Assembly: GCA_963708075.1 (NCBI GenBank)
Contig: OY970194.1
Coordinates: 4,128,001 to 4,192,000 of the forward strand
DNA length: 64,000 bases
Direction of reading: 5' to 3'
Source of the DNA: Sedimentisphaerales bacterium
GTDB lineage: Bacteria; Planctomycetota; Phycisphaerae; Sedimentisphaerales; Anaerobacaceae
This document shows positions 6,397 through 63,380 of this stretch, one piece after another. The translations under genes and the position numbers were made by a program. The notes beneath the pieces were generated by a model. It saw nothing but the letters and a program-made list of their open reading frames with translations, ran no database searches and was not told where the DNA came from. Every line of letters begins with the position of its first letter. Position 1 is the stretch's first letter.

Positions 6397-6442
6397 TCCG
6401 GGACTTATGTGTGGGCAAATCCATCTGGAAAGGAATGCGATC

Positions 6443-14681: not shown

Positions 14682-15287
14682 CTAACACGTGACGACTGAC
14701 CCACTTTTGACCCCATCGCTCGTTCCGGAGATACTGTTCCAGCCGGGCCCGAGGCTATCAATCTTGATGAGGTCGGCGCTACCTGGAGTGATGAACGTGA
14801 ATGTTGAGGTGCCGGTGGAAGCACCATCAATGAATACGGGCTCAAGGCCGGTGAAGGAAATCAAGGTGGCGCCGACCTGAATCGTGCTGTCGCCGAAGAC
14901 CACGCCCGGAGCGTAAGTCCCCGCAAAAATGCCACTTATGACGGGAGTATCATACCCCCCTGCACCACCGTGGAAGGTGACGGGAATGGGCAGATCGCCG
15001 CGGCTCAAGTCCACGACGAGGGTGTCGTCCGTCTCATCCAAACCCCGGATGATCAGACCACAGATCCCCTCCTCGGCCAACCGTTTCCGCTGGAAGTCCC
15101 ATACATCGATCATCCCTGAAGCTGTCACGGTCAGGATCGAGCCCGCCTGTGGCGGAGGATTCGAAACGTGCAATGTGTCGAGGAGTCGCGACTCGAGAGA
15201 CTCCACGCTGTAGTTCGTCTCGCCATCGCGCGGACCAGCCGCGGGCTGTTTTCTCCCCGAACGCGTTGCCCACCATCGTGCTAACAC
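14682..15287 (-). pseudogene. Internally deleted, 3'-truncated paralogue of the giant LEPRxLL protein N-terminus
   Basis: VESLESRLL|DTLHVSNPPPQ..TVTASGMIDVWDFQ..DETDDTLVVDLSRGDLP..FTGLEP, colinear with ~46300-47330. Confidence 0.85.
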
Positions 15288-15367
15288 TGCGAAGAAAGCA
15301 ACCCTTCAGGCTTCTGTCCGGATCGCAGGGTGACAGGACATCCTGCGCAAGATGTTCCGAAAAGGCG

Positions 15368-15395
15368 TTGCAACCATGCGGAGGCAGTGTACAAT
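15368..15395 (+). promoter_or_regulatory. Putative sigma70 promoter for the GAF-HlyD/M50/SecA-like operon
   Basis: TTGCAA-N16-TACAAT upstream of ATG 15443. Confidence 0.45.
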
Positions 15396-15442
15396 CAGAG
15401 TTGATTGGCTTGTGTTCTTGTGTCCAAGATAGGGTACGGCTG

Positions 15443-17308
15443 ATGGCGGACGAGTTGTCTCATACTCCAGAAGATGCCAATGAAGGCTCGCCGCCGCGAG
15501 CTGAAGGACCATCAAATCGAGCGCCAGGTGCCGAAGCGGGACTGGGTCGGTTCTTTACTCAGCTTTTGGCTATGCAATGCCACTGCTGCCGAGCCAAACA
15601 TGGTGCGGTGCTCCAGCTGGATGGCGATAAGACCTTCCGGACAGTGGCCTTGTTTCCGTCGGGGCAGATTGAGCAGGAACAACAGCAATGGCTGCAGCGT
15701 TCTGCGGCGGCAGCGAGCCAGGTATTCGCCGGCGGTGGAGCTGCGGTTGTGCCCGTGGACGGGGACTTGCGAACCCATGCGGTTATTGTGCCCCTTCGAA
15801 TTTCCGGCCACGACCGGCTGTTGGCGACGCTCCTGGTCAAGACGGCCGAAAAGACTGCCTTGGAAGGAGCCAGACAACTGCTCGAACTGACGACGCTTGT
15901 GGTCGGCATGACGTGCGAACACTTGTCCTCGCACGGCAAAGAGACCGCCCTGCAGAAGTTACACAAGGGATTGGAGGTCCTCGCAGGGACCAACCGCCAG
16001 AACCGCTTTCGGGCCGTGGCGATGGCCTTCTGTAATGAGATGGCCTCGCAGTGGCAGTGCGAGCGGGCCAGTCTTGGCTTTCTCAAGGGCCGCTATGTCC
16101 AGGTGAAGGCCATGAGCCATGCCGAGCACTTCAGCCGCAAGATGCGACTGGTGCAGGACATCGAAGCCACCATGGAGGAGTGCCTGGACCAGGATTGCGA
16201 GGTCATCTATCCCTCTTCGGCTGACGCGACTTACATTGCACGAGCGGCCGGTGAGTTGTCGGATCATCACGGCCCAAAGACCCTCATGAGCCTGCCATTA
16301 CGACAGGAGAGCCGGCCCATAGCCGTAGTCACTCTGGAGCGGATTGCCGGCCAGGCATTTACAGATGACGAAGCCGAGGCCATCCGGCTGGCGTGCGATC
16401 TGTGTGCCCCACGACTACTGAACCTGCAACACTACGATCGCTGGATCGGAGCCAGGATGGCCGCCAATGCTCGTCGCGGGTTAGCCGTCGTGCTGGGTGC
16501 CCAGTACACCTGGACCAAACTGGCGGTGATTGGCGGCTTCGTCCTTGTGCTGTTTTTGGTCTTCGCCAAGGGTTGGTACAAAGTCAAAGCTCCCTTTGTC
16601 TTTGAGGCGATCTCTCAGTACAAGATCGCTGCCCCATTCGATGGGTTTATCAAGAGCGTGGGTGTAGAGGTCGGCGACCGCATCGTGGAGGGCCAGACCG
16701 CTTTGGCGGAGTTGGATACAGCCGAGCTGCGACTACAGTTGGCTTCCGCCAAGGCCGAACAGGCCGGCTATCTCAAGCAGGCGGATGCCGCCATGCGAGA
16801 CGGCAAGACCGCCGAGGCCCAGATCGCCCAGGCGAGCGCCGATAGGGCTCAGGCTCAGATGGACCTGCTCAGTTATCACATCAGCCAGGCACGGATTCTG
16901 TCTCCCGTGACCGGCACGCTCGTGACCGGCGATCTCAAGCGCCAGATCGGTGCTCCCGTGGAGACAGGCAAGGTACTTTTTGAAGTTGCTCCCCTGGATT
17001 CTTTGCGAGCCGAACTGTATGTATCGGAGGATGAAGTGTCGGACGTGGCGGTAGGTCAACAGGGTTATCTGGCGACGGCCACCTATCCGGGGGACCGGAT
17101 CGGCTTTGCGGTGGAGCGAGTGAATCCGGCGGCGGAGGTAGTCAGCAATCGCAACGTCTTCAAGGTGTGGGTGAAGCTCTCGGAGAGCCGGCCCTGGATG
17201 CGGCCGGGCATGGAGGGTGTGGCGAAAGTCACGATCGAGAAACGCCCCTACGCATGGATCTGGACGAGGAAGGTTGTCAACTGGATACGGATGAAGCTGT
17301 GGCTTTAG
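15443..17308 (+). CDS. HlyD/MFP periplasmic adaptor with N-terminal GAF-like domains
   Basis: GAF-like region (CERASLG..MEECLDQ..SLPL..VVTLER), one TM, IAAPFDGFI..V..GD lipoyl half, coiled coil, ILSPVTG, MRPGMEG.AK. Confidence 0.88.
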   Translation: MADELSHTPEDANEGSPPRAEGPSNRAPGAEAGLGRFFTQLLAMQCHCCRAKHGAVLQLDGDKTFRTVALFPSGQIEQEQQQWLQRSAAAASQVFAGGGAAVVPVDGDLRTHAVIVPLRISGHDRLLATLLVKTAEKTALEGARQLLELTTLVVGMTCEHLSSHGKETALQKLHKGLEVLAGTNRQNRFRAVAMAFCNEMASQWQCERASLGFLKGRYVQVKAMSHAEHFSRKMRLVQDIEATMEECLDQDCEVIYPSSADATYIARAAGELSDHHGPKTLMSLPLRQESRPIAVVTLERIAGQAFTDDEAEAIRLACDLCAPRLLNLQHYDRWIGARMAANARRGLAVVLGAQYTWTKLAVIGGFVLVLFLVFAKGWYKVKAPFVFEAISQYKIAAPFDGFIKSVGVEVGDRIVEGQTALAELDTAELRLQLASAKAEQAGYLKQADAAMRDGKTAEAQIAQASADRAQAQMDLLSYHISQARILSPVTGTLVTGDLKRQIGAPVETGKVLFEVAPLDSLRAELYVSEDEVSDVAVGQQGYLATATYPGDRIGFAVERVNPAAEVVSNRNVFKVWVKLSESRPWMRPGMEGVAKVTIEKRPYAWIWTRKVVNWIRMKLWL

Positions 17309-19511: not shown

Positions 19512-21497
19512 ATGGCGGCCCTCTCCCACGTAAGCTGGAAGACGCTCGATCAGGGCCTGCAGGCGAAACCCCTGCCCCAAGGCGCAGACGCCGCTTGGCA
19601 TGCAGGAGCGGGCATGCTAAGTCGATGCCTCCCACGACAGCGGTGGTTCCTTCGCCGGGCCCGGAAAATTGCGGAGCTGGATACGCAGTTCTCCGCCCTG
19701 ACGGACCACAAGCTGCGAGAAGAGGCCACCGGGCTTCGACAGGTGTTTCGGCTGGGCCGGGACAAGGCAGACGACTTGGATCGGGCATTTGCCATCGTGC
19801 GGGAGGTTGCCCTGCGGCAGATCGGTGAAAAGCCTTTCCCCGTCCAGATAGCAGGAGCTTTGGCTCTGGCCAAAGGCTGTGTCGTAGAGATGGCTACGGG
19901 CGAGGGCAAGACTTTAAGCGCTACACTGCCCGCGACGGTCGCTGGCTGGCGAGGCCAGGGCTGTCACATCATCACGGTCAACGACTACCTGGCCAAGCGG
20001 GATGCCGAATGGATGGGCCGCATTTATCAGTTTTGCGGGCTTCGGGCCACCTATATCGAGCAGGGCATGGCCCCGGAGGATCGCAGGAACGCCTACGCAG
20101 CGGATATCACCTACTGCACGAACAAGGAAGTGACGGCGGATTTCCTGCGGGATCGACTGCTTCTGGGCCGGTTGCGGGGGTCCAGTTCCGCCCTCTTATC
20201 CAAGATTGCCTCCGACGGCAGGTCCCCTCTGGATCGTCTGGTCCAAAGAGGGCTGCAGTGGGCAATTGTCGATGAAGCGGACTCCATCCTTGTCGATGAA
20301 GCCGTAACTCCTTTGATTATCTCCGGACCCGCTCCCAATCCCGAGCAGACGCAAGCCTTCTGCCAGGCGGTGAAGATTGCGGAAAGTCTCACCCCTCCAA
20401 GAGATTACTCGGTCAATCCTCGCTACCGGGAGGTGGAACTGACCGCCGAGGGACGCCGGCGTCTGGCAGATTTGGCGGCGCCTTTGCCAGGGATCTGGCA
20501 AGGCGCCCGCCGCCGCGAGGAGATCGTGACGAAGGCCCTCGTCGCCCAGCAGCTCTACCTCAAGGATAAGCACTACATCGTCAGCGATGGCAAAGTCGTC
20601 ATCGTGGATGATTTCACCGGCCGCATTATGCCGGACCGCTCCTGGCGGGATGGATTGCACCAGGCGATCGAGGCCAAAGAGGGGCTGGAGGTCACCGCCT
20701 GGAAGGATACCTACGCACGAATCAGCTTTCAGCGGTTCTTTCGATCGTACAAGCACCTGGCCGGCATGACAGGCACGGCCCAGGAGGCCGCCGGCGAGTT
20801 CTGGCAGATCTACAATCTGCCCGTAGTGACGATCCCGACGAATCGGCCGTGCATCCGGAGGGTACTGCCGGATATCGTTCTATCCGGCAAAGAGATCAAA
20901 TGGCAGCGGCTCGTACAGGAGATTCGTAAAGTTCACGATAACGGCAGGCCGATCCTCGTGGGAACACGAAGTGTTCGAGACAGTGAATACCTGAGCATCC
21001 TGCTAACAGCCGAGCATCTGGATCATCAGGTGCTTAATGCGGTCCGCCATCGTGAGGAGGCCCAGATCGTCGCTGAGGCGGGTCAACCCGGCAGGATTAC
21101 CGTGGCGACGAACATGGCCGGCCGAGGCACCGACATCAAACTCGGTCGGGGCGTGGCTGAACTTGGGGGTCTGCACGTGATTGCCGCTGAGCGAAATGAG
21201 TCCGGCCGGATCGACCGCCAGCTCTTCGGCCGGTGTGCCCGCCAGGGCGATCCGGGAAGTGCCCAGGCGATAGTGTCACTGGAGGATGAGTTCGTCTGCC
21301 GCTACGCAACACACCTTGCCGGCCACTTCAAACGCCGCCACGCTCAAGCCTCGGGAGACCTTTCTTCCATCCTCGCCAGGACAACATTTCATCTGGCCCA
21401 GTACCGCGCCGACAGATTCGCCCTGAGCCAGCGTAAGGCGGTCATGCGGGCCGATCACTGGCTCGATGAGACCATCGGCTTTGCCGGTAGGGCTTAG
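19512..21497 (+). CDS. Accessory, C-terminally shortened SecA-like ATPase
   Basis: EMATGEGKT, TVNDYLAKRD, IVDEADSILVDEA, GLHQAIEAKE, GMTGTA, IPTNRP, ATNMAGRGTDI, RIDRQLFGRCARQGDPG; only 661 aa. Confidence 0.93.
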   Translation: MAALSHVSWKTLDQGLQAKPLPQGADAAWHAGAGMLSRCLPRQRWFLRRARKIAELDTQFSALTDHKLREEATGLRQVFRLGRDKADDLDRAFAIVREVALRQIGEKPFPVQIAGALALAKGCVVEMATGEGKTLSATLPATVAGWRGQGCHIITVNDYLAKRDAEWMGRIYQFCGLRATYIEQGMAPEDRRNAYAADITYCTNKEVTADFLRDRLLLGRLRGSSSALLSKIASDGRSPLDRLVQRGLQWAIVDEADSILVDEAVTPLIISGPAPNPEQTQAFCQAVKIAESLTPPRDYSVNPRYREVELTAEGRRRLADLAAPLPGIWQGARRREEIVTKALVAQQLYLKDKHYIVSDGKVVIVDDFTGRIMPDRSWRDGLHQAIEAKEGLEVTAWKDTYARISFQRFFRSYKHLAGMTGTAQEAAGEFWQIYNLPVVTIPTNRPCIRRVLPDIVLSGKEIKWQRLVQEIRKVHDNGRPILVGTRSVRDSEYLSILLTAEHLDHQVLNAVRHREEAQIVAEAGQPGRITVATNMAGRGTDIKLGRGVAELGGLHVIAAERNESGRIDRQLFGRCARQGDPGSAQAIVSLEDEFVCRYATHLAGHFKRRHAQASGDLSSILARTTFHLAQYRADRFALSQRKAVMRADHWLDETIGFAGRA

Positions 21498-49790: not shown

Positions 49791-50887
49791 TCAGGCGGCC
49801 CTCCGATAGAAGTGCAGGAGTCCGCCAAGCCGCTCCTGGCAGACGACTTTGCCTTCCCCTTGCGGAGGCGGCTCGATGATCTCGTTGCCGATACCCTGGT
49901 GAGCCCGCTCCGTATGATAGTGCTCCATGTACTCTTTGATGACGAACTCCAGGTGCCGCTCGCCGAAGATCAGCATCCGATTCAAGCACTCGCTCTTGAT
50001 GCTGCGGACAAACCTCTCGACGATGCAATTTAGGTGCGGTGCCATGGGCAGGGTCCGGATGCACTTGACCCCGGACGACTTCAGGATTTCCCGGAACTCC
50101 TCAGTGAACAGAGGGTCCCGGTCGTGGATCAGGTACTTCTTGTCCTTAAGGAAACCTGAGAATTGATCGGCCAGATTCCTGGCTTTCTGGAGCATCCATT
50201 CGCGATGGGCCTGCTGGATGATACCGGCCACGTTCGCCTTGCGCGTGGCGTAGTCGATAGTGACCAGAACCATGTATCGGGTAAGGCCAGACAGGGTGTA
50301 AATCTCAGTCGTGAAGAAGTCGATAGCCGCCAGAGACTCCCAATGCGACCGTAGGAACTCTGACCAGCGGGTCTCTCTGGCTCGATCCGGACCGGGCGTG
50401 TATCCATTTCGCTTGAGGACATTGTCGATGGTCGTGTGGCAGATGTTGTGCCCCAAGTACTTGAGTTGTCCTTTGATCCTTCGAGAGCCCCAAGTCTTGT
50501 TCTTGCGTGTGATTTGGACGATCAGTTCCTCCATCTCTTCGGAGATTCTCTTTCTACCGGGTGTCCCCTTCTCCTTCTTCTTGCTGCCATCATACTTGCG
50601 AGCGATGAGATTGCGATGTCATCGGAGGATCGTATCTGGGGAGAAGACAGAACAAGCGTCATTCAGGACCGACCGCCCCAAACGTTTGCCAGTCGTGCCA
50701 ATCGCATCCGCTGGTTGTCATTGAGAAGGATTCTCTTGGTGTCGAGCTTCTCGCGTAGAATCTTGTTCTCCTCCTTGAGGTACACAATCACATCCCGCTG
50801 ATGCCGGTTGATCCAGCCGGCCAGCATCATCAGGAGCATGCCCATAGGTTTGACTTTCACCACCACTTCAGCCTTTCCACCTTCCAA
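49791..50887 (-). pseudogene. Integrase-core (rve) transposase pseudogene
   Basis: AIDFF, LIHDRD, ERFVRSIKSECL, ERAHQGIGN, RLGGLL; frameshift near 50688 plus in-frame TGA near 50620. Confidence 0.9.
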
Positions 50888-51560: not shown

Positions 51561-54500
51561 CTATTCTCTCTGAGGACCGAGTACGATGGGGTGCGCAGCG
51601 TTAGATCCATCAAGAAGTCTCTCGATCAATCGAAATTCAGGGAGAAGGTCCTGATCATGTTCCACGCCCTTGAATGGATTGCCGGTCTGCGGAGTGGCAG
51701 GATTCACCGCCGTAAGCTCTTCACGCGAATAGGGAACGTAAAGCCCAAAACCGATCTTGCCCGTAGCACGCGTCAACCAATCACCGTGCTTGCTCACACG
51801 AATTGGCCGATGCACGTTGTGCTCTCTAAGATAGTTCTTGATCTCTTGTTGATGAAGAAAATGTGGATAAGCACCTTGCGGGCGTTTTGCCAACTTGGCT
51901 GCCTTCTCCTCGTTTTCTGATAACTTTTGCCGCTCCCACACTTCAACCTCAGCGGCAAGTTCCTCAAACGCTCGGCCCAATTGCTTCCGTCGATCGCTCA
52001 TCGCGTACGGAATTACGGGCTGGCCGATGATGTCCCGCCAAAGCGCAACGACAGCGTTTTCGTTGGATCTTCCTCCTGGATCGAGAAACCATTCGCAAAC
52101 AATGCCTGCTTCCTCTATCCGTGTTCGCTGCTGCTCGAACCATGCGGCACACGCCTTGAGTAGATCCGGCTCTCCATGCGACGTGTCGCTCCTCGATTCG
52201 ACCAAAAACATCCTGCCATTCAGCAATGGTGTCAGTCGCTCTGCTTGCGTTCTCTCAATTCCTGGTGGAACTTGTGAGATAGTTTCGAGATCATCGTCAG
52301 GCAAATATTCCCGTCGCTTGAATTCTGCGGTACGTGCTTCGAGAAACTCCTTCACGTTATCTCCGATCAACACACGGGACTTGAGCAAAATAGCCTCATC
52401 GGGAAATGGACTGTGAATCCTCAGCGGAACTGACAGGAGAGGAACGCGATCGTCTAATGGCCAGAACGCATCTCTATATTGCGGGTCCACATCTGTTTTT
52501 ACGGCGATAAGGGCCGTATTTTCATCAGTCCGCAAGCTTGGAAGGATGCGCCCATTTCTTCGCGAGGCCAAAATGATGCATCGGTGAATGCCCGCCCAGC
52601 GGAGCATTGAGATCCATGACAGTGTGAAACCTTGGGGCAAACTCGCCCATTGCGCTACTTCGATTCTGTCGGTCCCAGGTGTATAGCCCGGGTACCGCAG
52701 CCCACGGTAGTAGGCGTGGCTACTCCCTGTCAGCCGCTTCGTCGGTCCATAGACCAAAGCATATGCGAGCATATCCCGCATCACGGCTTCAAGGAGTGGT
52801 TTGCTGAAAGGATACATTTCGGTTGCCAAGCGATCCCGTGTCAGGGTCAGTGGCAATGCCCCGTCTGGATCGAAGATCGAAACTGAAGGCACTTTCAGGC
52901 ACAAGGACTCCTCTGTTGACTTGTCGCTCCCCAAATGTGTCTTGCCATTTGTGGAGAGTGTATGCCACTTGACTCCCCTATCGCGCTCCATGTCCCCAAT
53001 CGTGATGCCGTTGCATGTCAATGTGGTCCCGTATTCTTCATAGGTCCATTGGATGTCCGTAAAGGGCTGATACGTGATTCGTCGCCACTTCAACGGTAGA
53101 GTTGCGCCTTCGGAAGGAAGCCAATTGTCATTATGGTCATTGAAATCGCCTGACCGATCAGTGTCTTCACCGTTACGAAGGCGTTTGACGACCGGATCAG
53201 ACAACCGATACCAATTCCACTCAAAACGAGAACTGTCGCCAAGGGGAGCAGAAAGCCTGACCCTAACTGTTGTTCCAATCTCCCGGCGCGCATGAAAGAG
53301 GTCAATTGACTCGTCTTCAAGGCGGGCCGTGAACTGGATGGCACGAGCAGAGGAATAATGCCGAGTGATGACCTGCAATTGTTCGCCCAACAAGAAAGCT
53401 GCAAGTGCGCCGACGCCAAAGCGACCGCTGCGGAGGACTTTGGAATGCCCGTTTGCGTCAGTGAACAACTTCTGCCAATCCGAGGAACGGCGATATGTAG
53501 CACCGGCCTTCAAGAAGAAATCTCGGACGATCTCAGCAGTCATTCCGATGCCGCGGTCAGCAACTTCGAACCAGTGAAGCCAATCCGATGGCGGACCGCC
53601 ATTTTCGGGCGTCGGTGTTTTCTCATCACGGCTGCATTCGGCGAGAATCACATCCGCATTGGGGAATCGAGAGTCGATGGGCGCAAAACTCGATTTACTC
53701 TCGAACGATAAAGCTCGCCGTTCCCGAACGGCGTCGAGCGCGTTTTGCAGCAACTCACGCACGCCAATGCCGGGGCTATCCCCATACAACGGCTTGACGA
53801 GCAATTTCAAGTATTCGCCTTGTGCGGTATCGAAGGCGGCGCGACAAGGCACGAACGTCAACTTTGATTCAAAACTCTGATCATAGAGATTCGATTTCAC
53901 TCGCCGTAAGCTCAACCACAATCGTGACAGGCGATCATAACGGCCATAGACCTCACCCAACACGGTCCAGCCGTGATCAAGCTCGGATTGAAGCATTTCG
54001 TGCCATTGCCGTAATCGAAACAGGGTCGACGCGATGAAGACTTCGCTCGGTTGGACATCAATGCAGACGGCTTCAGGGTCTTCATCGACATTGAGCCGAA
54101 CATCAAAAATTGCCTGATGAGACTCCTGTTCGCGCCGAGAGTAAGGGCTGGCAAGCTTCTGAATCAAGGCACGGGAGCCCGCTGCACGCTCGGCGTGTAC
54201 GTGCAACACATCGGCAACGCGCAGCACTGCCATCAGGTACACGACGTGTGTCCCGCGACTCTCTCGAAGATTGTTGGAGTGGTGGCGTGAGAGATAGCCA
54301 AATGTGTCGCGCAACTGCATGCCGTGTGAGCGAGATACCAGCCCGATCAAATCCCTCAGTTCCGGCGATACCATCGAGGAATCACTAACAATCAGTTGTG
54401 GGCCGTCATTGCCCGGCCATCCGTAACAAGCAATCTCATGAGCCAGGCGATGATGATGTCTCCGAATGAACTCTCCGATGAGCAGTGTTTGGCACTCGGT

Positions 54501-55055
54501 CAGTGGCTCGTTGCAGCGTACGATATGTGTTAGATGTTGTGTTGATTTGCTGTGTGACCATGGCAATTCGCCGAACAGCCGGCGAATCGTTCGCTCCCCC
54601 CAATGCCGCGATTCTTCAAGGTACATTTCCCATAAGGCGTGCCACGGCTGGTCCAACGCCTTATCGATCAATGGGCGAGCAGCACCGTCTATGAGTTCTG
54701 CAAAGGCCGCTTGCGTGAGGAACATCCCCATATCGTGGTACAAAACCGCGCCCGTTAGCACAAAAACGTCCTCCGCTGAGGTAACATCCCAACTATTGGG
54801 CCGGCCAAAACCACCAGTACATATCAAAAACTCGGCAAGGTGGGCAACGCGTAAGAGATGTTGTATCCCGTGGTCGGTGTATTCAGGAAAGAAGGTCATT
54901 CGAGGATGCTTACCAAGCCAAGCCACGTAGTGGCTGTAAGCAGCGTCAAGCAGCGGATAGCAGTTGCCGGCTTTTTGTTCTATTCTAGTCGGCAGTATCT
55001 GCTTGATGGGCAAATTCGGTATATCATTATGGCGTTCAACTGGCATTCGAACCAT
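51561..55055 (-). CDS. HD-domain (HD-CE-like) + Hsp90/GHKL ATPase multidomain protein, putative defence/conflict effector
   Basis: YTDHGIQH, LYHDMGM, RRHH, SHG, LRVADVL; LYG..VRELLQNALDA, DRGIGMT, GRFGVG, GTTVRV; more AT-rich than flanks; start uncertain. Confidence 0.85.
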   Translation of the reverse strand: MVRMPVERHNDIPNLPIKQILPTRIEQKAGNCYPLLDAAYSHYVAWLGKHPRMTFFPEYTDHGIQHLLRVAHLAEFLICTGGFGRPNSWDVTSAEDVFVLTGAVLYHDMGMFLTQAAFAELIDGAARPLIDKALDQPWHALWEMYLEESRHWGERTIRRLFGELPWSHSKSTQHLTHIVRCNEPLTECQTLLIGEFIRRHHHRLAHEIACYGWPGNDGPQLIVSDSSMVSPELRDLIGLVSRSHGMQLRDTFGYLSRHHSNNLRESRGTHVVYLMAVLRVADVLHVHAERAAGSRALIQKLASPYSRREQESHQAIFDVRLNVDEDPEAVCIDVQPSEVFIASTLFRLRQWHEMLQSELDHGWTVLGEVYGRYDRLSRLWLSLRRVKSNLYDQSFESKLTFVPCRAAFDTAQGEYLKLLVKPLYGDSPGIGVRELLQNALDAVRERRALSFESKSSFAPIDSRFPNADVILAECSRDEKTPTPENGGPPSDWLHWFEVADRGIGMTAEIVRDFFLKAGATYRRSSDWQKLFTDANGHSKVLRSGRFGVGALAAFLLGEQLQVITRHYSSARAIQFTARLEDESIDLFHARREIGTTVRVRLSAPLGDSSRFEWNWYRLSDPVVKRLRNGEDTDRSGDFNDHNDNWLPSEGATLPLKWRRITYQPFTDIQWTYEEYGTTLTCNGITIGDMERDRGVKWHTLSTNGKTHLGSDKSTEESLCLKVPSVSIFDPDGALPLTLTRDRLATEMYPFSKPLLEAVMRDMLAYALVYGPTKRLTGSSHAYYRGLRYPGYTPGTDRIEVAQWASLPQGFTLSWISMLRWAGIHRCIILASRRNGRILPSLRTDENTALIAVKTDVDPQYRDAFWPLDDRVPLLSVPLRIHSPFPDEAILLKSRVLIGDNVKEFLEARTAEFKRREYLPDDDLETISQVPPGIERTQAERLTPLLNGRMFLVESRSDTSHGEPDLLKACAAWFEQQRTRIEEAGIVCEWFLDPGGRSNENAVVALWRDIIGQPVIPYAMSDRRKQLGRAFEELAAEVEVWERQKLSENEEKAAKLAKRPQGAYPHFLHQQEIKNYLREHNVHRPIRVSKHGDWLTRATGKIGFGLYVPYSREELTAVNPATPQTGNPFKGVEHDQDLLPEFRLIERLLDGSNAAHPIVLGPQRE

Positions 55056-55291
55056 TATACATGTTTTTAGCGAGTTGCACTCGTGGACGATGAGGAACAG
55101 CAATTAGTAGTTGAGGAACCCGCCGTCCTCCGCCATCCGTGCTCCGTCCTCCATTCTCTGCGTTTGGGTGGTGAAGAACTCGGCGGGCGAGCCCCACCGT
55201 ACCGTCCTCGTTCTCCGCGGTGAGGAATCCGTATTCATCTTGTGTGAATCCGTGTCTCCTCTGCGTCCCCCGGCGTTCTCTGCGATGAAAT

Positions 55292-55915: not shown

Positions 55916-55935
55916 TAAGGTGTGGCAGGATGATT

Positions 55936-56633
55936 ATGGAATTACAGGCACACATACTGGTTGTTGAAGACGAGCAGGCGATCCGGACGGCGCTGGTGGA
56001 TTTCCTGGAGTACCACGGCTTCCGGGTCACGCCGGCGTGCGACGGGCTTGCGGCCAAGCAGGCGGTCGAGCAGAACCGCTTCGACCTGATCCTGCTCGAC
56101 CTGATGCTGCCGGGGATCGGCGGCGAGCAGTTGTGCTCGCTGTGGCGCCACGGCGGGGTACAGACCCCCATCATCATGGTCACGGCCAAGGGGCAGGAGA
56201 AGGACAGGATCCAGGGCCTCGACCTCGGGGCCGACGATTACATTACCAAGCCATTCTCGCTGGAGGAGATGCTGGCCCGCATCCGGGCGGTGCTTCGGCG
56301 GACGGACCCGGCCCGGGGCGTCGGCCAGAGCTTCGCGTTCGGCGACCTGCACATCGACATGGCCTCGCTCAAGGCTCTGCGCGGCGGCCGCAACATCGAC
56401 CTGACCAAGCGTGAAGCCCTGATCGTCCAGTACTTCGCCGCCAACCCCAACCGGGTGATCGATCGCGAGGAGCTCTACCGCGAGGTCTGGCACGATCTTC
56501 TGACCGACCTGGGCACGCGGACAGTCGATATGCACATCGCCAAGCTGCGAGCCAAAATCGAGCAGGACGTTTCCGCCCCGCAGATCATCCAAACCGTCCG
56601 GGCGCGGGCTACAAGTACGCGACCGCCCTGTAG
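55936..56633 (+). CDS. OmpR/PhoB-family response regulator with a single-base frameshift at ~56600
   Basis: ILVVEDE, DLILLDLMLP, GADDYITKPF, RTVDMHIAKLR; adding 1 nt restores TVRGAGYKYATAL*. Confidence 0.92.
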
Positions 56634-56701
56634 GTCGCTGGGTCCATGCGCGGCTGGTGCCAGGAAGAAACTGGAGTGTCTGTGAGAATAATCGGGTATC
56701 C

Positions 56702-56794
56702 GGGTGGCAGCGGCAAGCGAAGAGAATCGGAGCTTGCCGATGGTGCTATGCATCCGAGGAGCCATCGGCAAGCTGGCGCTTGCCGCTGCCACCC
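56702..56794. repeat. REP-like nested palindrome
   Basis: GGGTGGCAGCGGCAAGCG / CGCTTGCCGCTGCCACCC enclosing AGCTTGCCGATGG / CCATCGGCAAGCT. Confidence 0.85.
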
Positions 56795-56850
56795 AGCACT
56801 TTGCCCAAGAACCTGGACAGACACAAACTGGATGTGATTGGATAAGGCTT

Positions 56851-56922
56851 GGGTGCCATGCTTACGCTCGCGTAAGCATGCTGTTTATGGAACATGTCTA
56901 CGCGAGCGTAGACATGGCACCC
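56851..56922. repeat. REP-like inverted doublet
   Basis: GGGTGCCATGCTTACGCTCGCGTAAGCATG and inverted CATGTCTACGCGAGCGTAGACATGGCACCC, each internally palindromic. Confidence 0.85.
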
Positions 56923-56958
56923 GATCCGTGGGTTTCTTAAGAGAACGATCCGACGAGT

Positions 56959-59103
56959 ATGTACAGACGTCTTATCATTTTGAGCCTTGTCATCGTGGCC
57001 GCCGTGTGCGGGCTCGGGGGGCTCGGCTATCATGCTGTGGCCAAGTGGGCACAGGGTCTGGAGGGGGCCCGGCTGGGCGAGTTCGCCGAGGTGGCGGAGC
57101 AAATCCGTCAGGACGTCAAGCGGAAGCTCGATGAGTTCATCGAGGCCGAGCAGCAGCGAAAGTACACGGATTATCTGTACTACTATGTGCCCGAGAACAT
57201 GGCGGAGATGCAGCAACAGCAGTTGCCGCTGCTTCGGTCGCCGCTGGGCAACCAGTTGTCCAACAGCTTCGCCTACGGCTACTTCCAGATCGAGGGCGAT
57301 GGCAGCATCGTCACGCCGTACTACCCAGGCACACTGCCCCGGATGGACCAGGGCAGTGCGATGACAGACGAGGTGGAGCGTCAAGGGAGGAACATCAAGG
57401 ACAATGTGCTGCCGTCGATCACCCGCAGATCGGGTGTCTTGCGATTGCCCGACCAGCAGATGACACAGCAGGCCGAGAGTCAGAGCCCGCAGTTGACTTC
57501 GCTCCGGGACAATCAAACATCGGAAAACAACACCGTTGTGAAAGGCAAAGGCGCGCGCAGCAAGGCCTACCCGATCGAAAGCTTGAACAAGGAGGCCCAG
57601 GCGTCGCAGGTCATCAGGCAGCAGCGACTCTTTGTCAACTCGAACCAGGTCCAGGCCGTCCCGCCTCCATCGCAACCACCGACTGAGACACAAGCAGGTC
57701 CAGCCGAACAGGTTGCGCCCATGCCAGCCCAGCGGGGGCAAGTTGCAGAGCCATCCGCAGCGGCTCAGGAGCAGACTCAGGTGGCAGCCGCCCTGCCACC
57801 GCAGGATCAGCGGGACCTCTCCACCTCGTCCGGCATCCAGGCGGATTTGCAGCAGGCAAAGGACCTCTCCGAGATGGTGCAGATCCGCATCGAGCCGTTC
57901 GTGCCTCTCATCGTACCTGGCGTAAACCCGGAGACCTCCATCTTCGGCGGGCAGGTTTTCCTGCTGCGGCACGTGCAGATCGAGGACAGGCACCTTCTCC
58001 AGGGCTTTCAGTTGGATGAGCAGAGGCTCGTCACGGAGATCGAGGAATCGGCCGGACGATTCATGCGGGACGGCATGGGTTTCGAGTTGCCGCGGGTCAC
58101 CAAGGCGAGCGGGTACGTAGACGACGTCGGTGAGAAAGCCGCGTATACAGCCATCCTCGACTTCGGTTTTGGGGATCTCGCCCTGAGCCTCAAGGAGCTC
58201 GACCCCGCCTGGATCACCAAGCGAAGCGGGGAATTGCACCGGATTTACTTCGGGATTCTCGCGACCGTCGTGGCCGCCGTCACGCTGGCCCTGGTGAGCC
58301 TGTGGCACAACGTGCGGGCCCAAATCATACTGGCGAGGAAGAAGGACGACTTCATCTCGGCTGTCTCGCACGAGCTGAGAACACCTCTGACCTCGATTCG
58401 CATGTACTCGGAGATGCTGGAAAGGAACTGGATCAAGTCGCCGGACAAGCTGGGCGAGTATTACCGGAATATGCGGCAGGAGAGCGAACGGCTCAGCCGG
58501 CTTGTGGAGAACGTGCTCGATTTTGCGCGACTGCAAAAGGGTCGCAAGCGCTACGCCTTCCGGCTTGGCAACCTGAATGACTGCGTCGCCGAGGTCGTGG
58601 AGATGATGAAGCCCTATGCGGAGCAGCGCGGGTTCACCATCCGGACCGATTTCGAGCCGCTGGGCCAGACGCCATTCGACAAGGACGCCGTCACGCAAAT
58701 CGTCGTGAACCTGATCGACAACGCCGTCAAGTACGCCGCCTGTGCGACGGACAAGACCATCGCCGTGCACACGCGAGGACAAGACAGCTTCACCATCATC
58801 GAGGTCGAGGACCACGGCCCGGGCGTCCCCCATCGCCAGCGCAGGAAGGTCTTCGAGGAGTTCTATCGCATAGAAAGTGGGAAGTTTGAAGTGTCAAGTG
58901 TGAAGCCCAGAGAGCCTCTTCACACTTCAAACTTGAAACTTGACACTTCAAACTCGCCTCAAGTCACAGGCACCGGCCTGGGCCTGACGCTGGTCAAACG
59001 CTTCGCCGAAGCCCACGGCGGCTACGTCGAGATCGACTCCGCCCAGCCCACCGGCGCCATCTTCCGCGTCGCCCTCGCCACGCACCTTTTGCCCGCCTCA
59101 TAG
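56959..59103 (+). CDS. Membrane sensor histidine kinase
   Basis: Two TMs around a large Gln-rich periplasmic region; SHELRTPL, NLIDNAVKY, DHGPG, GTGLGL. Confidence 0.93.
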   Translation: MYRRLIILSLVIVAAVCGLGGLGYHAVAKWAQGLEGARLGEFAEVAEQIRQDVKRKLDEFIEAEQQRKYTDYLYYYVPENMAEMQQQQLPLLRSPLGNQLSNSFAYGYFQIEGDGSIVTPYYPGTLPRMDQGSAMTDEVERQGRNIKDNVLPSITRRSGVLRLPDQQMTQQAESQSPQLTSLRDNQTSENNTVVKGKGARSKAYPIESLNKEAQASQVIRQQRLFVNSNQVQAVPPPSQPPTETQAGPAEQVAPMPAQRGQVAEPSAAAQEQTQVAAALPPQDQRDLSTSSGIQADLQQAKDLSEMVQIRIEPFVPLIVPGVNPETSIFGGQVFLLRHVQIEDRHLLQGFQLDEQRLVTEIEESAGRFMRDGMGFELPRVTKASGYVDDVGEKAAYTAILDFGFGDLALSLKELDPAWITKRSGELHRIYFGILATVVAAVTLALVSLWHNVRAQIILARKKDDFISAVSHELRTPLTSIRMYSEMLERNWIKSPDKLGEYYRNMRQESERLSRLVENVLDFARLQKGRKRYAFRLGNLNDCVAEVVEMMKPYAEQRGFTIRTDFEPLGQTPFDKDAVTQIVVNLIDNAVKYAACATDKTIAVHTRGQDSFTIIEVEDHGPGVPHRQRRKVFEEFYRIESGKFEVSSVKPREPLHTSNLKLDTSNSPQVTGTGLGLTLVKRFAEAHGGYVEIDSAQPTGAIFRVALATHLLPAS
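58874..58955. repeat. Inverted heptamer-repeat element in frame inside the kinase
   Basis: AAGTGGG AAGTTTG AAGTGTC AAGTGTG AAG ... CTTCACA CTTCAAA CTTGAAA CTTGACA CTTCAAA. Confidence 0.85.
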
Positions 59104-59520: not shown

Positions 59521-60000
59521 TCACTCTTCTTCCGGGGCGCCGGGGGTGAAGCAGACGAGGGCGATCAGGACCAGACCGGCGCCGGCGATGAACAGGGTGA
59601 TTCGCTTGGGGGGATCGCTGCACCGTTGCAGCCAGACTGGGATTTCCGGGGCGTCGGGCTCCTGCTCGGCCTCCGCTACCAGGGCCTTTCGGGCAATCGC
59701 CAGCTCGCCGGCCCGGGCCTTGGGATAGACGGTGTTCGGATCGTTGGGCTCGGTCCCCAGGGTCACAGGCACGATGCGCTGGAGCAGGTCAGGGTCCTTC
59801 TCCAACTCCTGCAACAGGGCATCATACTCGGCGTTGAGCGACTCAAGCTGTTTGAGGGACGATTGTGCTTCCCGGAGATAGCTCTTGTTGCGGCAGTACT
59901 GGGTGAAATCATCGCACAGGACCGCCCCGCCCAGCGCGACGGCACCGATGCTGAAGAACACCACAAAGAAAAGGAGGTGGAGAATCCCTTGCCTCTGCAT
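59521..60000 (-). CDS. Hypothetical membrane protein (TM, coiled coil, TM)
   Basis: Hydrophobic termini; LKQLESLNAEYDALLQELEKDP..LQR..LG is loosely FtsB/DivIC-like. Confidence 0.65.
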   Translation of the reverse strand: MQRQGILHLLFFVVFFSIGAVALGGAVLCDDFTQYCRNKSYLREAQSSLKQLESLNAEYDALLQELEKDPDLLQRIVPVTLGTEPNDPNTVYPKARAGELAIARKALVAEAEQEPDAPEIPVWLQRCSDPPKRITLFIAGAGLVLIALVCFTPGAPEEE

Positions 60001-60012
60001 GGCAGACCACCA

Positions 60013-60043
60013 ATTGCGGATTGCGGATTTCGGATTGCGGATT
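60013..60043. repeat. ATTGCGG heptamer tandem repeat
   Basis: attgcgg attgcgg atttcgg attgcgg att. Confidence 0.85.
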
Positions 60044-60191
60044 CACGACGCGGCTTCGATCCGCAAGTCCATCATTGGCCCAATCCATTCATCCATACAC
60101 ACAGGGTGCGCTTGATCCGGTCGCCGCAGCGCCCTGCAACCTATCCGGCTTATCGGCCGCCGCCGGGCTCGTTCTGAAATGTTTCTCGGAC

Positions 60192-60245
60192 TAAAAGAAA
60201 TGCGGATTGCGGATCGGGGTCAAAGGCCCAATCCGCAATCCGCAA
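60192..60245 (-). terminator. Putative intrinsic terminator of the enolase-like gene, built from heptamer repeats
   Basis: Minus strand TGCGGATTGCGGAT..ATCCGCAATCCGCA followed by TTTCTTTT. Confidence 0.55.
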
Positions 60246-60264
60246 TCATCAATCTGCAATCAAC

Positions 60265-63014
60265 TTATACGGGGTAAACCGGCAGTTGGGCCCGGAGCAG
60301 CTCGTAGATGGTCTTGCCGCTCTTGACGCACACCGCCGCACTCTGGCGATACTGGGTGGTAAGCTGGTCGAAGTCCAGCTTCTTGAGATCCGCCAGACTC
60401 TTTTTGCCGCCGTTGGCCACGATGAACTTGGCCATGGTGTCGCTGGCGATGTCCCGCATGAGCTGCCAGAGCTCCCGGCCGTCCGCCGCCGCGACCGCCC
60501 GGCCCAGGGCCAGCGACATCGACAGGATGGCGTTCATGCCCAGCAGGCCCTTGCGCTGCATGGCGTGGATCTTCTCCTCTTTCGAGGCGTCCTTGCTGAT
60601 CCGGCCGGCAGCGATCGCCTGCTCGAGTTCCAGCCCGAGGAGCTGACGGTCGGTGTCGAGGAGCGAGCCCAGCGTACCGACTCGCTTGCCGACGAAGGCC
60701 TTGGCGAGCACGGTTTCGATGTGCTGGACGGCGTCCATGCAACCCTTGCCGTCGTATCGCCGGGACTTCTTCCAGAGGGCCATGAGCTTCTCATCGTTCT
60801 TGGCCCGGACCGCGTCCACCTTGACGTCCTTCTTGAATCGGAAGGTGCCGTCGCCGGCGGCCTTGAACAGGTCGGGATACTTCTTGACCGTATCGGACGG
60901 CTCGATGATGCTGTCCACATAGTGGATGGCTTCGTCCTCGCCGGCGCTGGTGCCCAGAGGGGTCGAGCCCTTGAAGCGAATGATGCCGCTTCGGCCGAGG
61001 AACAACGTGGCGGCCGCCGACGGGATACCGGCGTTGGTCGCCTCTTCCGTACCACTGACGGCCTCGATGGCCAGCATCTTCATCAGGAGGCTGGTCAGAT
61101 CGATGTCGCCCGCCTTCGCGGAGATGGTGCAGTCGTCTTTGCCGGTGAGGATCTTGACCAGCTCTTTGACGCTCTCTTCGATTTCCTTGCGCTCTTTGGC
61201 TGTCGTTTCGCGCTGCGAGGCTCGAGCCAGGGCGAGGATTTCCATCATGCGCCCGTACTTCTGGAGGCGTTCGGTGTTGGCGCCGCCGCCGCACTTGACG
61301 CCCAAGGCGTTCATCGCGGTGCCGATTTCCGCCTCGAACGGGTCGTTCGGGCTCTTGGACCGGTGGGAGATCACCAGCTCGGCGCCGTAGGCCAGCGAGG
61401 TCAGCATGGCCAGCACGGTCTCGGTCAGGGTTCCAATCTGGTTGGCCTTGATCAGCGAGGCGTTGATTTCGCCGTTCTTGGCGCACTTTTCAATGTTCGA
61501 GTCCTTGGTGGTGACCAGGTCGTCGCCGATGATGAAGATCTTGTCGCCAAGCTCTTTCACCAGGTTTTTCCAGCCCTGGTGGTCGCGCTCGCCGAATCCG
61601 TCTTCGATGGACAGGATCGGGATGCCTTCTTCCATGGACTTCTTGAAGAGGTCCAGGATCTGGTCGCGGCTCATCTCGACCTTGCTCTTGTCGCGCCAGA
61701 AGCGATACATGCCGACGGAATCGGGCTCGCCGCGCTCCTCGCGGTAGGCGTTTTCGAGCTCGGAGCACGCCGGGTCCAGAGCGATCGCGACATCGACGCC
61801 GGGGACCCACTCGCAGTCCAGAATGGCCTGCTTCATGAAGCGCCACATGCGCTGCTCAGGCACCTGGTCTCCCTCTGCCTTATCGACGTAGGGTGCGATG
61901 CCGCCTTCGAGGCCGACACCCATGACCTTGCGCCCGGGGCCGACTCGATGATTTCCTTGAGCCGGTACTGGAGCTTCACGGTCATTTCCTGGGCGTCTTC
62001 GTAGGTCTTCGGGGAAAGCGGCATGAACATGCTTTCCTGCATGGAAATGTTGCTTTCGGGGTATTCCTTCTCGGTGTGCCGGCCGCCCATGGCGCAGTTT
62101 CGGAACTGCCACGGGGCCGCAACGCGGTTGCCGTCCTTGAGGATGATCTGCTGCATGCGCGTGGTCAGCAGCCTCTGCTTCACGGCAGCGACCTGCACGG
62201 GCCAGCTCTCCTTCGAGGCAGCCGCAGCCGCGCGGGCCGCCTGCTCGGCGGCGATCTTCTCGCGGGTGCGGAACTCGCGGAGCTTGCCGGGGTCGGCCAG
62301 CAACCGGTCCAGCATGCCCACGCAACCGGGAGCCAGGAAGAACCGGCCGACGTAGACGAAGAAGTCAACGCCGGTGGAAAGGCCAATGGCGATGAGCACG
62401 ATAGCCGCCGGCAGGCAAACCGCCGCCAGGTATCCGCTCCACACGGGGGCCGACGCCGCGACGGCCAGGTTGTACGGGGCATCGGGGACGAAGTTGCCAT
62501 GCTCTTTCTTGACGCCGTAGAACTTGCCCCACGGAATCAGCAGGAGCATCTGGGCGTAGTAGCCGAACTTACTGCCGCTGCTCTTGAGGATCGCATCGGC
62601 TTTCTCCTGGGAATCCTTATTCAAAGCCGTCAGCTTCGCGGCCGTGAGGAAGTGTCCCATTTCGTGGACGGCAATGGCGATATGCCACGACAGGTAAAGA
62701 ACGGCCAGCGAGATCCACACTTCGATGTGGGTCGGCAGGAACATGAACTGCAGCACGACGGACTTGATGTTCACGCCGGCCTCGGCCTGCTGTCGCAGTT
62801 GCTCGGCCGGCAGGCTCAGCACGGAGGAAATGAAGGCAGCGTGGAAGGAAACCAGCTTGTGGTTCGCGATTACCCAGCCGCGCTCCAGGGCCATCCGCTG
62901 AAGGCCCGCCGCACGGTTCGGCCTGCGGAATATATCACGCACCGCCTGCCACCCGCGGCGCACGATCCCGTTGTTCCGGTGGACTCCCACCTCTGACTCT
63001 GCCAGTTGACTCAT
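60265..63014 (-). CDS. eno: Circularly permuted enolase fused to an N-terminal HExxH membrane domain (~916 aa; single-base frameshift at ~61930)
   Basis: AAGGAG RBS; TMs + HEMGH; barrel motifs GGRH, QES, GLEGG, ALD, IEDG, GDDL, LIKANQIGT, SHRS, VKCG, ERLQKY; then capping-domain motifs PLGTSAG..EA, RYDGKG, LGMNAILSMSLA. Confidence 0.85.
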
Positions 63015-63380
63015 TCTCAACTTCTCCTTCATCTATAGCTCGACCCATGTCGGCATTTCAGCCCCAACTGAAAGGCTCATGGGCTCTTACCACCTTGCAG
63101 GACGTGCCTCGTGAAGCCATCCCCCACTTGTCGTGGATTGATGGTTGCGGACTCACCATCTTCCGTGATCCGCCACCAATCCGACCTCCGCAGTCGCTAC
63201 GGGCCCGTGCCATTCCCCGCGCTCGGGGAACACAGAACCATACGAATTCCGCGCGAGAAAGTCAATAGCGATTCCGCAAAGTTCATAGGAGAATCGCGGG
63301 ATTGTGCCGGCGAAGAACGGCGGCGGGACAGCAGCAAACGAAAGACACTCGAAAATGCCATCTGTCTTGGGGACCACAGC

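Follow-up and report, generated by a model that had tools for sequence, protein, structure and literature searches.

Enolase (EC 4.2.1.11) is among the most conserved enzymes, and its canonical form (PF03952 and PF00113; TIGR01060; Protein Data Bank entries 1w6t, 6bfy, 4a3r and 1iyx) carries a capping domain in front of the catalytic barrel. A pairing of its gene with divIC/ftsB is known, such as eno-divIC-Rv1025-ppx2 in Mycobacterium tuberculosis, according to the accessible part of a preprint (bioRxiv 10.64898/2026.08.31.746906). The site-2 proteases (MEROPS M50; PF02163), such as RseP, SpoIVFB and MjS2P, have an HExxH motif, then xAGP and, further downstream, LD within a hydrophobic helix; their extended motif NxxPxPxLDG is linked to substrate binding in the accessible part of a published account (PMC9672952). 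In this study, a gene on the minus strand at 60265..63014 was analyzed in a window of 64,000 nucleotides, the whole stretch of DNA under study, from a Sedimentisphaerales bacterium (GCA_963708075.1, contig OY970194.1). The gene encodes a domain with an HExxH motif, followed by the enolase barrel (Enolase_C) and then by the normally N-terminal cap (Enolase_N). It is a real, conserved and so far undescribed variant of enolase, and we are fairly confident that it is a housekeeping enolase, circularly permuted and anchored at the membrane, which took the place of eno in the chromosome. No description of a natural circular permutant of enolase was found in the literature searched, with most subscription papers and the bioRxiv supplements outside its coverage; in the accessible part of a bioRxiv preprint on Omnitrophota, enolase is mentioned only as a KEGG match.

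The gene is interrupted by one frame break as assembled. An intact orthologue of 918 residues (P0004), the two halves of which are 84% and 94% identical to the window gene, was therefore used as a stand-in in the analyses. The parts of the gene are as follows.

60265..63014, minus strand: whole gene, with the HExxH domain (a predicted membrane domain), the enolase barrel and the enolase cap; about 915 codons
63014 to about 61930, minus strand: frame 1, 361 residues, with HEMGH and the first 60 positions of Enolase_C
61926 to 60265, minus strand: frame 2, 553 residues plus stop, with the rest of Enolase_C and then Enolase_N
61929..61930, minus strand: frame break, one base fewer than in the aligned relatives
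62823..62888, minus strand: near-invariant motif LERGWVIANHKLVSFHAAFISS at the start of the N-terminal domain; 20 of 24 columns do not vary among 51 close homologues, and most distant homologues still show a recognisable form
62652..62666, minus strand: HEMGH (HExxH) at the end of a hydrophobic helix, predicted zinc ligands and general base; kept in 68 of the 69 rows with residues here
62445..62459, minus strand: AASAP, which aligns with AAAGP of distant homologues
62304..62318, minus strand: GMLDR with the candidate third zinc ligand Asp (D236 of P0004), kept in 67 of 70; the NxxP that precedes it in site-2 proteases is missing
61237..62117, minus strand: enolase triosephosphate isomerase (TIM) barrel (Enolase_C) with counterparts of all catalytic and Mg-binding residues, from Pfam, alignments and structure comparison
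61072..61236, minus strand: linker from barrel to cap, about 48-55 residues, helical in the model; it joins the canonical C-terminus to the canonical N-terminus
60455..61071, minus strand: capping domain of the enolase (Enolase_N); it contains the Ser loop PLGTSAG and, compared with canonical enolase, has two insertions of about 47 and 21 residues
60268..60454, minus strand: C-terminal helical tail (sequence and model), last residues LPVYPV

The ATG at 63014 is the likely start, as it lines up with the start of P0004; an alternative in-frame ATG is located at 63032. The initial annotation of this DNA had claimed that Enolase_C precedes Enolase_N, and Pfam searches on both halves bear this order out. 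The first half matched Peptidase_M50 at residues 118-263 of the open reading frame (ORF), below the cut-off (E value 0.011, 15.5 bits), and positions 5-60 of Enolase_C (E value 0.058). The second half matched positions 66-277 of Enolase_C at residues 4-230 (E value 5.5e-39) and positions 52-130 of Enolase_N at residues 387-489 (E value 2.9e-8; 34.4 bits with a cut-off of 35 bits). The latter score lies slightly under the cut-off because of the cap insertions; it is above the cut-off in many homologues in a Pfam scan of long representatives, and Enolase_C in P0004 reaches an E value of 7.4e-48. With TIGR01060 the window gene scored 171.8 bits against a cut-off of 300, having neither the canonical order nor the equivalog score. 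The individual motifs named in the same annotation were all found in place: HEMGH at 62666-62652, GGRH at 62087, SMQE at 62045, LEGG at 61911, ALDP at 61782, SIED at 61611, IGDD at 61530, LIKANQ at 61455, SHRS at 61368, VKCG at 61299 and PLGTSAG at 60960.

Homologues with the same domain order, which the initial annotation had proposed to look for, exist. Among the best 80 of 130 matching loci of relatives in genome contigs, 75 hold both halves in one long ORF, the full-length ones being about 900 residues; of the remaining five, four are truncated by the end of their contig, no later than the junction, and one contains many frameshifts. In addition, at least 982 proteins of similar length match P0004 at an E value of 1e-20 or below among 7999 candidates scored. 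The one-frame loci and the protein matches of similar length rule out a misassembly as the source of the domain order.

The enolase part retains the residues of the active site. In an alignment of 70 homologues (51 close and 19 distant), the eleven catalytic and metal positions of the barrel are invariant in all 70, and the Ser of the cap loop is present in all 69 rows that reach it. The residue correspondence was established by alignment to the enolases of the Protein Data Bank and to canonical enolases of the same order. In yeast numbering, the residues checked are H159, E168, E211, D246, E295, D320, K345, H373, R374, S375, K396 and S39. The cap aligns to canonical caps over its full length apart from the two insertions. 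The predicted structure of P0004 has a mean predicted local distance difference test score (pLDDT) of 88.9 and a predicted template modelling score (pTM) of 0.84. Its barrel superimposes on that of 1w6t with Z 32.6 and a root-mean-square deviation of 2.1 Å over 282 residues, and on solved enolases overall with Z 29-33 and about 2 Å; the best non-enolase member of the superfamily gave Z 12.3. Order-dependent aligners matched the barrel only, and the pTM of 0.84 suggests that the domains have a fixed placement in the model.

The enolase content of this genome, which consists of a single contig and is 92.8% complete, is consistent with a housekeeping role. A second, canonical eno, for which the initial annotation had proposed a search, was not found with PF00113, PF03952, TIGR01060 or tblastn with 15 canonical enolases, except as a deletion relic: PF00113 gives one match, the permuted gene, and PF03952 gives none at an E value of 0.001 or below. 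The genome also encodes PGK, a PGM-type metalloenzyme, pyruvate kinase and a complete PPDK. The relic of a divergent canonical eno lies outside the window at C1:17686-17826 of this genome and spans about 140 bp. It consists of the first 20 codons and an upstream purine-rich stretch, joined to codons 176-207 or thereabouts at a shared PT(I/V)xE motif, and it continues into unrelated sequence and a stop. Its match has an E value of 2e-8, compared with 0.005 for the best of 20 shuffles, and it is a deletion relic of canonical eno. Four other genomes of the genus that have only the permuted gene gave no such relic. In a further genome (G022), the canonical eno (L118, G022:C500:4600-6500) has a frameshift and two in-frame deletions, and the permuted gene is intact.

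The same pattern extends through the order. Of its 216 genomes with a completeness of 90% or more, 43 are carriers of the permuted gene. Searches with TIGR01060 gave an intact or near-intact canonical eno in 17 of these carriers, fragments in two and none in the other 24, from 14 genera; an enolase match was obtained in 172 of the 173 non-carriers, and in the one without it the slot falls at a contig end. These counts come from genomes that are 90-99% complete and include kin that are not independent, so that a Fisher test on the presence counts is an overstatement and carries no weight here; the 14 canonical loci and 30 non-carriers used for closer comparison were hand-picked. The canonical copies of the 17 carriers are all 51-56% identical to the vertical reference enzyme. 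Among the 30 non-carriers, 21 have enzymes that are 78-100% identical to it, seven are at 63-68% and two are at 51-56%. No vertical-type eno was found among the carriers tested, and in each of four genera (g39, g50, g66 and g82) some species have the vertical eno alone and others the permuted gene alone. The canonical enolases of the carriers (L119-L124 and L155-L158) form a divergent clade outside the eno slot; two genomes, G008 and G012, have two canonical copies each.

The slot itself is defined by its neighbours, and two elements follow the permuted gene downstream.

59521..60000, minus strand: weakly DivIC/FtsB-like gene, 159 residues, a marker of the ancestral eno slot
60201..60244, minus strand: terminator-like hairpin of 18 pairs with a T-rich tail, composed of short ATTGCGG-type repeats, directly after the stop

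The DivIC assignment has an E value of 0.0019, below the cut-off, in one of nine homologues scanned; a weakly DivIC-like neighbour fits the known eno-divIC pair. Of 58 testable loci, 36 have the 159-residue gene downstream of the permuted gene. Upstream are psd, rnc, a STAS gene or a small membrane gene, and some marker of the slot is present in 63 of 74 testable loci. The vertical eno has the same 159-residue gene downstream on the same strand in ten of the 14 canonical loci, with psd upstream in five; of the other four, two have the rnc/STAS context and two have no marker. In this genome psd is located about 4.8 kb upstream, outside the window. The divergent canonical copies have no slot marker in four of the four carriers examined, that is, they lie outside the slot. 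Displacement of eno in place is the simplest reading of this arrangement, and the permuted gene probably spread by recombination between the conserved flanks. Since the permuted gene stands in the slot of eno and no other near-complete enolase gene was found in this genome, its product is likely to serve as the enolase of everyday glycolysis in the cell. The proposal in the initial annotation of an active enolase anchored at the membrane is supported, and made more precise, by the invariant catalytic residues, the barrel superposition and the replacement of eno in its slot.

Elsewhere the content of the slot varies. In two non-carriers (G041 and G049; loci L153 and L154), from a genus in which the other species carry the permuted gene, a third canonical type is inverted within the same slot, possibly a second replacement. 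In G109 and G123 the slot is empty and the enolase is elsewhere; G015, one of the two non-carriers at 51-56%, has no slot marker gene, so that its slot may be unassembled. The small membrane gene (L079:1307-1684, minus strand; 123-126 residues, no Pfam family) is divergently oriented upstream of the permuted gene at 30 of 62 testable loci. It occurs in 29 of 43 carriers and in 25 of 173 non-carriers, also beside the vertical eno in the non-carriers G135 and G146. As an obligatory dedicated partner it is ruled out, since it is confined to 29 of the 43 carriers and is not in this genome. Terminator-like hairpins in the region are not above chance (three found, 4.0 in shuffles), and a promoter-like site at 63265-63237 is at chance level (one found, 0.8 expected). 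The gap at 60012-60261, between the enolase and DivIC-like genes, is filled by short ATTGCGG-type direct and inverted repeats, which also occur in many other contigs of the sequencing runs compared. A response regulator and histidine kinase pair (55930-59103, plus strand) converges on the DivIC-like gene, and the kinase is downstream in seven related loci.

Beyond the order, the permuted enzyme belongs to a wide family whose members are named 'hypothetical protein' by NCBI. A profile of the N-terminal domain gathers 137 representatives at 50% clustering. Enolase_C is present in 35 of the 36 long representatives scanned, always behind the HExxH domain; 28 also show Enolase_N, with the barrel before the cap in all 28, and two show PPDK_N. 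An Atlas cluster of 512 members has the permuted form, and its commonest phylum is Acidobacteriota. An even draw of 400 other Planctomycetota genomes gave two carriers, both with dikinase fusions of about 2100 residues. In a quick, midpoint-rooted barrel tree, 29 close sequences form one clade within the distant permuted enzymes (SH-aLRT, the Shimodaira-Hasegawa-like approximate likelihood-ratio test, 100). The permuted enzymes stand well apart from the canonical enolases of the host, and therefore the permuted gene was not made by rearranging the host's own eno. The 736-residue domain that follows enolase in the fusion of G526 was found in none of the 43 carriers with the queries used, and the dikinase parts of the fusions match only the complete PPDK in this genome. 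These two results rule out an obligate dikinase partner; the module therefore works without the dikinase-linked domain in this lineage, as far as the queries reach. Furthermore, no dikinase is among the 22 commonest neighbour clusters in the neighbourhood clustering. Some members are much larger: P0178, P0183, P0214 and P0216 (1,200-4,100 residues) contain the HExxH-barrel-cap module, whole or in part, in several diverged copies, P0142 has 6,041 residues and P0140 adds a GPI-like domain.

Several observations weigh against a membrane-anchored housekeeping enolase; they concern the active-site surroundings, the company of other enolases, the membrane segments and the frame break. Motifs beside the active site are altered (GDEGG to GLEGG, HRSGET to HRSKSP and DSRGNP to TNAGIP), and a five-residue insertion follows the catalytic His relative to canonical enolases. 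In 17 of the 43 carriers a second, canonical enolase is retained, perhaps because the permuted one works poorly or is specialised. The two other Planctomycetota with the dikinase-fused form of about 2100 residues both keep a canonical eno as well, and therefore the family elsewhere can be a paralogue. From the motif changes and from this coexistence, both in the order and in the dikinase-fused relatives, it could be argued that the barrel here is non-catalytic or of altered substrate, sensing only 2-phosphoglycerate (2-PG), phosphoenolpyruvate (PEP) or a related acid, and that a canonical gene was missed in the assemblies. However, the catalytic positions are all invariant, canonical eno was not found in 24 of 43 carriers compared with one of 173 non-carriers, and a genome in one contig has only a deletion relic and holds the permuted gene in the eno slot. 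Such a paralogue is therefore regarded as improbable, and a pure sensor is likewise unlikely because in 24 genomes no near-complete enolase gene other than the permuted one was found. The membrane assignment is based on hydropathy segments at residues 99-117 and 183-214 of P0004 and on long helices in the model; the hydropathy peaks are modest (1.7-2.2).

The frame break is the remaining point. The gene is broken as assembled, and a near-identical sequencing run (X1) has no contig across 61842-61964, so that it does not cover the break. All five relatives aligned at the DNA level have one extra base at about 61929, as do the relatives' contigs in an RNA run (X15); the latter contigs span all 30 bins, in a run without a silent control, from which no expression is claimed. 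The ratio of nonsynonymous to synonymous substitution rates (dN/dS) is about 0.07-0.17 on both halves relative to the five relatives. When other loci of this genome were compared with the relatives' proteins, 13 of 113 were split by a frame change, many of the 13 resting on a single query; rnc (21 of 21 queries) and an RseP-like gene (five of five) are among them. The frameshifted rnc (C1:6345007-6345676) and RseP-like gene (4699653-4700992) are a sign of residual indel errors. The rate in other genes, about one frameshift per 10 kb, gives a chance of about 23% in a gene of such length. A DNA-level comparison with G019 shows a lower background than this protein-based rate, with one isolated indel in 31.8 kb. 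That low count, the break itself and the lack of cover in this strain's reads would suit a recent true pseudogene, in which the family is functional and this strain has no working enolase, or a little through frameshifting; the window also contains an intact phosphoketolase (XFP) gene (6407-8833, plus strand). Against such decay stand the position of the gene as the only near-complete enolase, the presence of the flanking glycolytic enzymes, the low dN/dS on both sides of the break, the lack of any other lesion and the frameshift rate in other genes. We give a pseudogene little credence; the missing base at about 61929 is most likely an assembly error.

The N-terminal domain is best described, from its motifs, as M50-like, and is not filed here as a member of M50. 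The initial annotation had invoked Peptidase_M50: a match is present, as it had supposed, but lies below the cut-off in every member scanned. The best score is 25.4 bits with a PF02163 gathering score of 27.2, and the E value reaches 1.1e-5 in two members. HExxH, which stands at the end of the helix with the hydropathy peak at 99-117, and the downstream Asp of LD are kept as listed above, the latter at the sequence level. Distant members have AAAGP, so that the order HExxH, xAGP, LD is that of the true M50 proteins from these genomes, and xAGP is present in all five M50 proteins taken from this and related genomes. NxxPxPxLDG, present in the same five, was not found in close or distant homologues, where it is reduced to LD. 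Language-model neighbours of the domain are small M50 proteins (0.89), which is a lead only. The isolated-domain model has a pLDDT of 66, and its best fold-search Z is 7.2, to unrelated helical proteins (Foldseek, VIA). No link to M50 was obtained with a domain profile against Protein Data Bank sequences; hhalign against a shallow alignment of five M50 sequences was no better than column shuffles; and a hidden Markov model of the domain did not retrieve the M50 genes of this genome from 31,088 frames (best RseP-like match, E value 2.8). The domain is conserved about as much as the cap and is under purifying selection. When it was folded as a separate chain together with the enzyme, the interface score ipSAE was 0.53, compared with 0.00 for the best control, the runs agreeing in at least 96% of contacts with a partner pLDDT of at least 79. 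This docking mark is reached by 116 of 157 solved pairs and two of 215 mismatched pairs; at 0.60 or under are only 18 of the solved pairs and both mismatches. The model thus hints that the membrane domain may dock on the enzyme.

The conservation of the motif raises the question of a protease function. The Glu of HExxH-type motifs is a general base and not a metal ligand, and a plain anchor would not need it; it is nevertheless conserved in 68 of 69 rows, even where identity falls to about 35-50%. The domain probably has a zinc site. Any peptidase activity, as predicted from these motifs, is possible though doubtful, and its gating by enolase ligands is unlikely. The initial annotation had offered a sensor coupled to an intramembrane metalloprotease as an alternative; its HExxH and Asp are indeed kept, but NxxPxPxLDG is reduced to LD and the M50 match is below the cut-off. 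A fuller form of this idea would add to the housekeeping enolase and replace nothing in it: the ligand state of a working enzyme, through cap closure driven by 2-PG or PEP, would gate an active intramembrane zinc protease that cleaves a membrane regulator. The conserved Glu and Asp, the M50 matches of two members, the language-model neighbours, the purifying selection, the barrel behind the domain in 35 of 36 long representatives and, slightly, the docking are in its favour, whereas the loss of the extended motif, the scores below the cut-off, the want of a neighbour common to all loci and a small membrane gene that is not in this genome speak against it. On balance such a bifunctional enzyme is not expected. 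Slightly less probable still is the specific version in which cap closure on 2-PG or PEP switches the docked protease; if it were true, a housekeeping enolase would read the glycolytic state straight into regulated proteolysis.

For the membrane-anchored housekeeping enolase, we infer enolase activity, membrane location, zinc binding and the history of the permuted gene as follows. The enzyme likely converts 2-PG to PEP as a housekeeping step while tethered to the cytoplasmic membrane. The barrel would provide the Mg ligands and the acid/base residues, and the C-terminal cap, on its linker of about 50 residues, would close the Ser loop over the site as in ordinary enolase. The freed N-terminus of the barrel would bear the M50-like helical domain, which is predicted to be docked on the enzyme and likely binds zinc through H-H-D. 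A Sedimentisphaerales lineage may have taken the module from the wider permuted family into the eno slot, without the dikinase-linked domain, after which the vertical eno would have been lost. The divergent canonical enolase elsewhere in some lineages would then be dispensable, being a relic here and decayed in G022.

Further features stand out in the window and the genome. Three consecutive large ORFs at 25464-47400 (minus strand; 4,416, 2,041 and 942 residues) have nearly no Pfam matches; the largest has one weak RTX calcium-binding repeat match. Beside them are an HlyD/GAF gene (15149-17308), a gene of 728 residues that weakly matches M50 and a short gene resembling SecA (19512-21497), and the group is possibly a giant secreted protein with its export system. 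A 1,180-residue HD-CE plus HATPase protein (51561-55103, minus strand) lies in a stretch of lower GC content (53-55%), and near it, at 49791-50534, is an integrase-like ORF recognised by eye from its translation; the region looks like a small mobile or defence island. Elsewhere in the genome, on contig C1, five ORFs have PPDK_N (ATP-grasp): 893501-897046, 998829-1000796, 1396440-1398230, 5422623-5425868 and 5676252-5679854. By eye, at least four have an apparent signal peptide and two have a lamin-tail-like insert, and they are possibly exported dikinase-like proteins.

A permuted, membrane-fused form appears to have displaced the ordinary gene of a highly conserved enzyme at its own locus, and is the sole enolase found in 24 genomes of 14 genera. 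The connection between cap and barrel of enolase can be rewired. Since the permuted genes fall below the TIGR01060 cut-off and are named 'hypothetical protein', such genomes will be scored as having no eno. The question is also raised of why a core glycolytic enzyme should bear a membrane domain like that of a zinc protease, with the catalytic Glu kept.

In comparison with known systems, the eno-divIC pair has its counterpart here, where a DivIC-like gene comes immediately after the enolase gene on one strand, although the enolase is permuted and the DivIC assignment of the neighbour is weak. The giant fusions of permuted enolase with PPDK-like parts in uncultured bacteria (P0138, P0175, L213 and L214) contain the same module, 35-50% identical over its whole length; here, in contrast, the module stands alone, with no dikinase-linked domain. 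HExxH, the later xAGP and the downstream LD in a hydrophobic helix are shared with the site-2 proteases, whereas the permuted enolase has no PDZ or CBS domain in Pfam scans and is fused to an enzyme of central metabolism. The features common to it and canonical enolase are the barrel fold, the residues at all catalytic and Mg-binding positions, a cap that bears the Ser loop and, within this lineage, the slot on the chromosome. It differs from canonical enolase in the reversed domain order, the N-terminal HExxH domain of about 290 residues, the extra linker, the cap insertions and the C-terminal tail, and its barrel, 30-39% identical to canonical barrels, belongs to a clade separate from the canonical enolases of its hosts.

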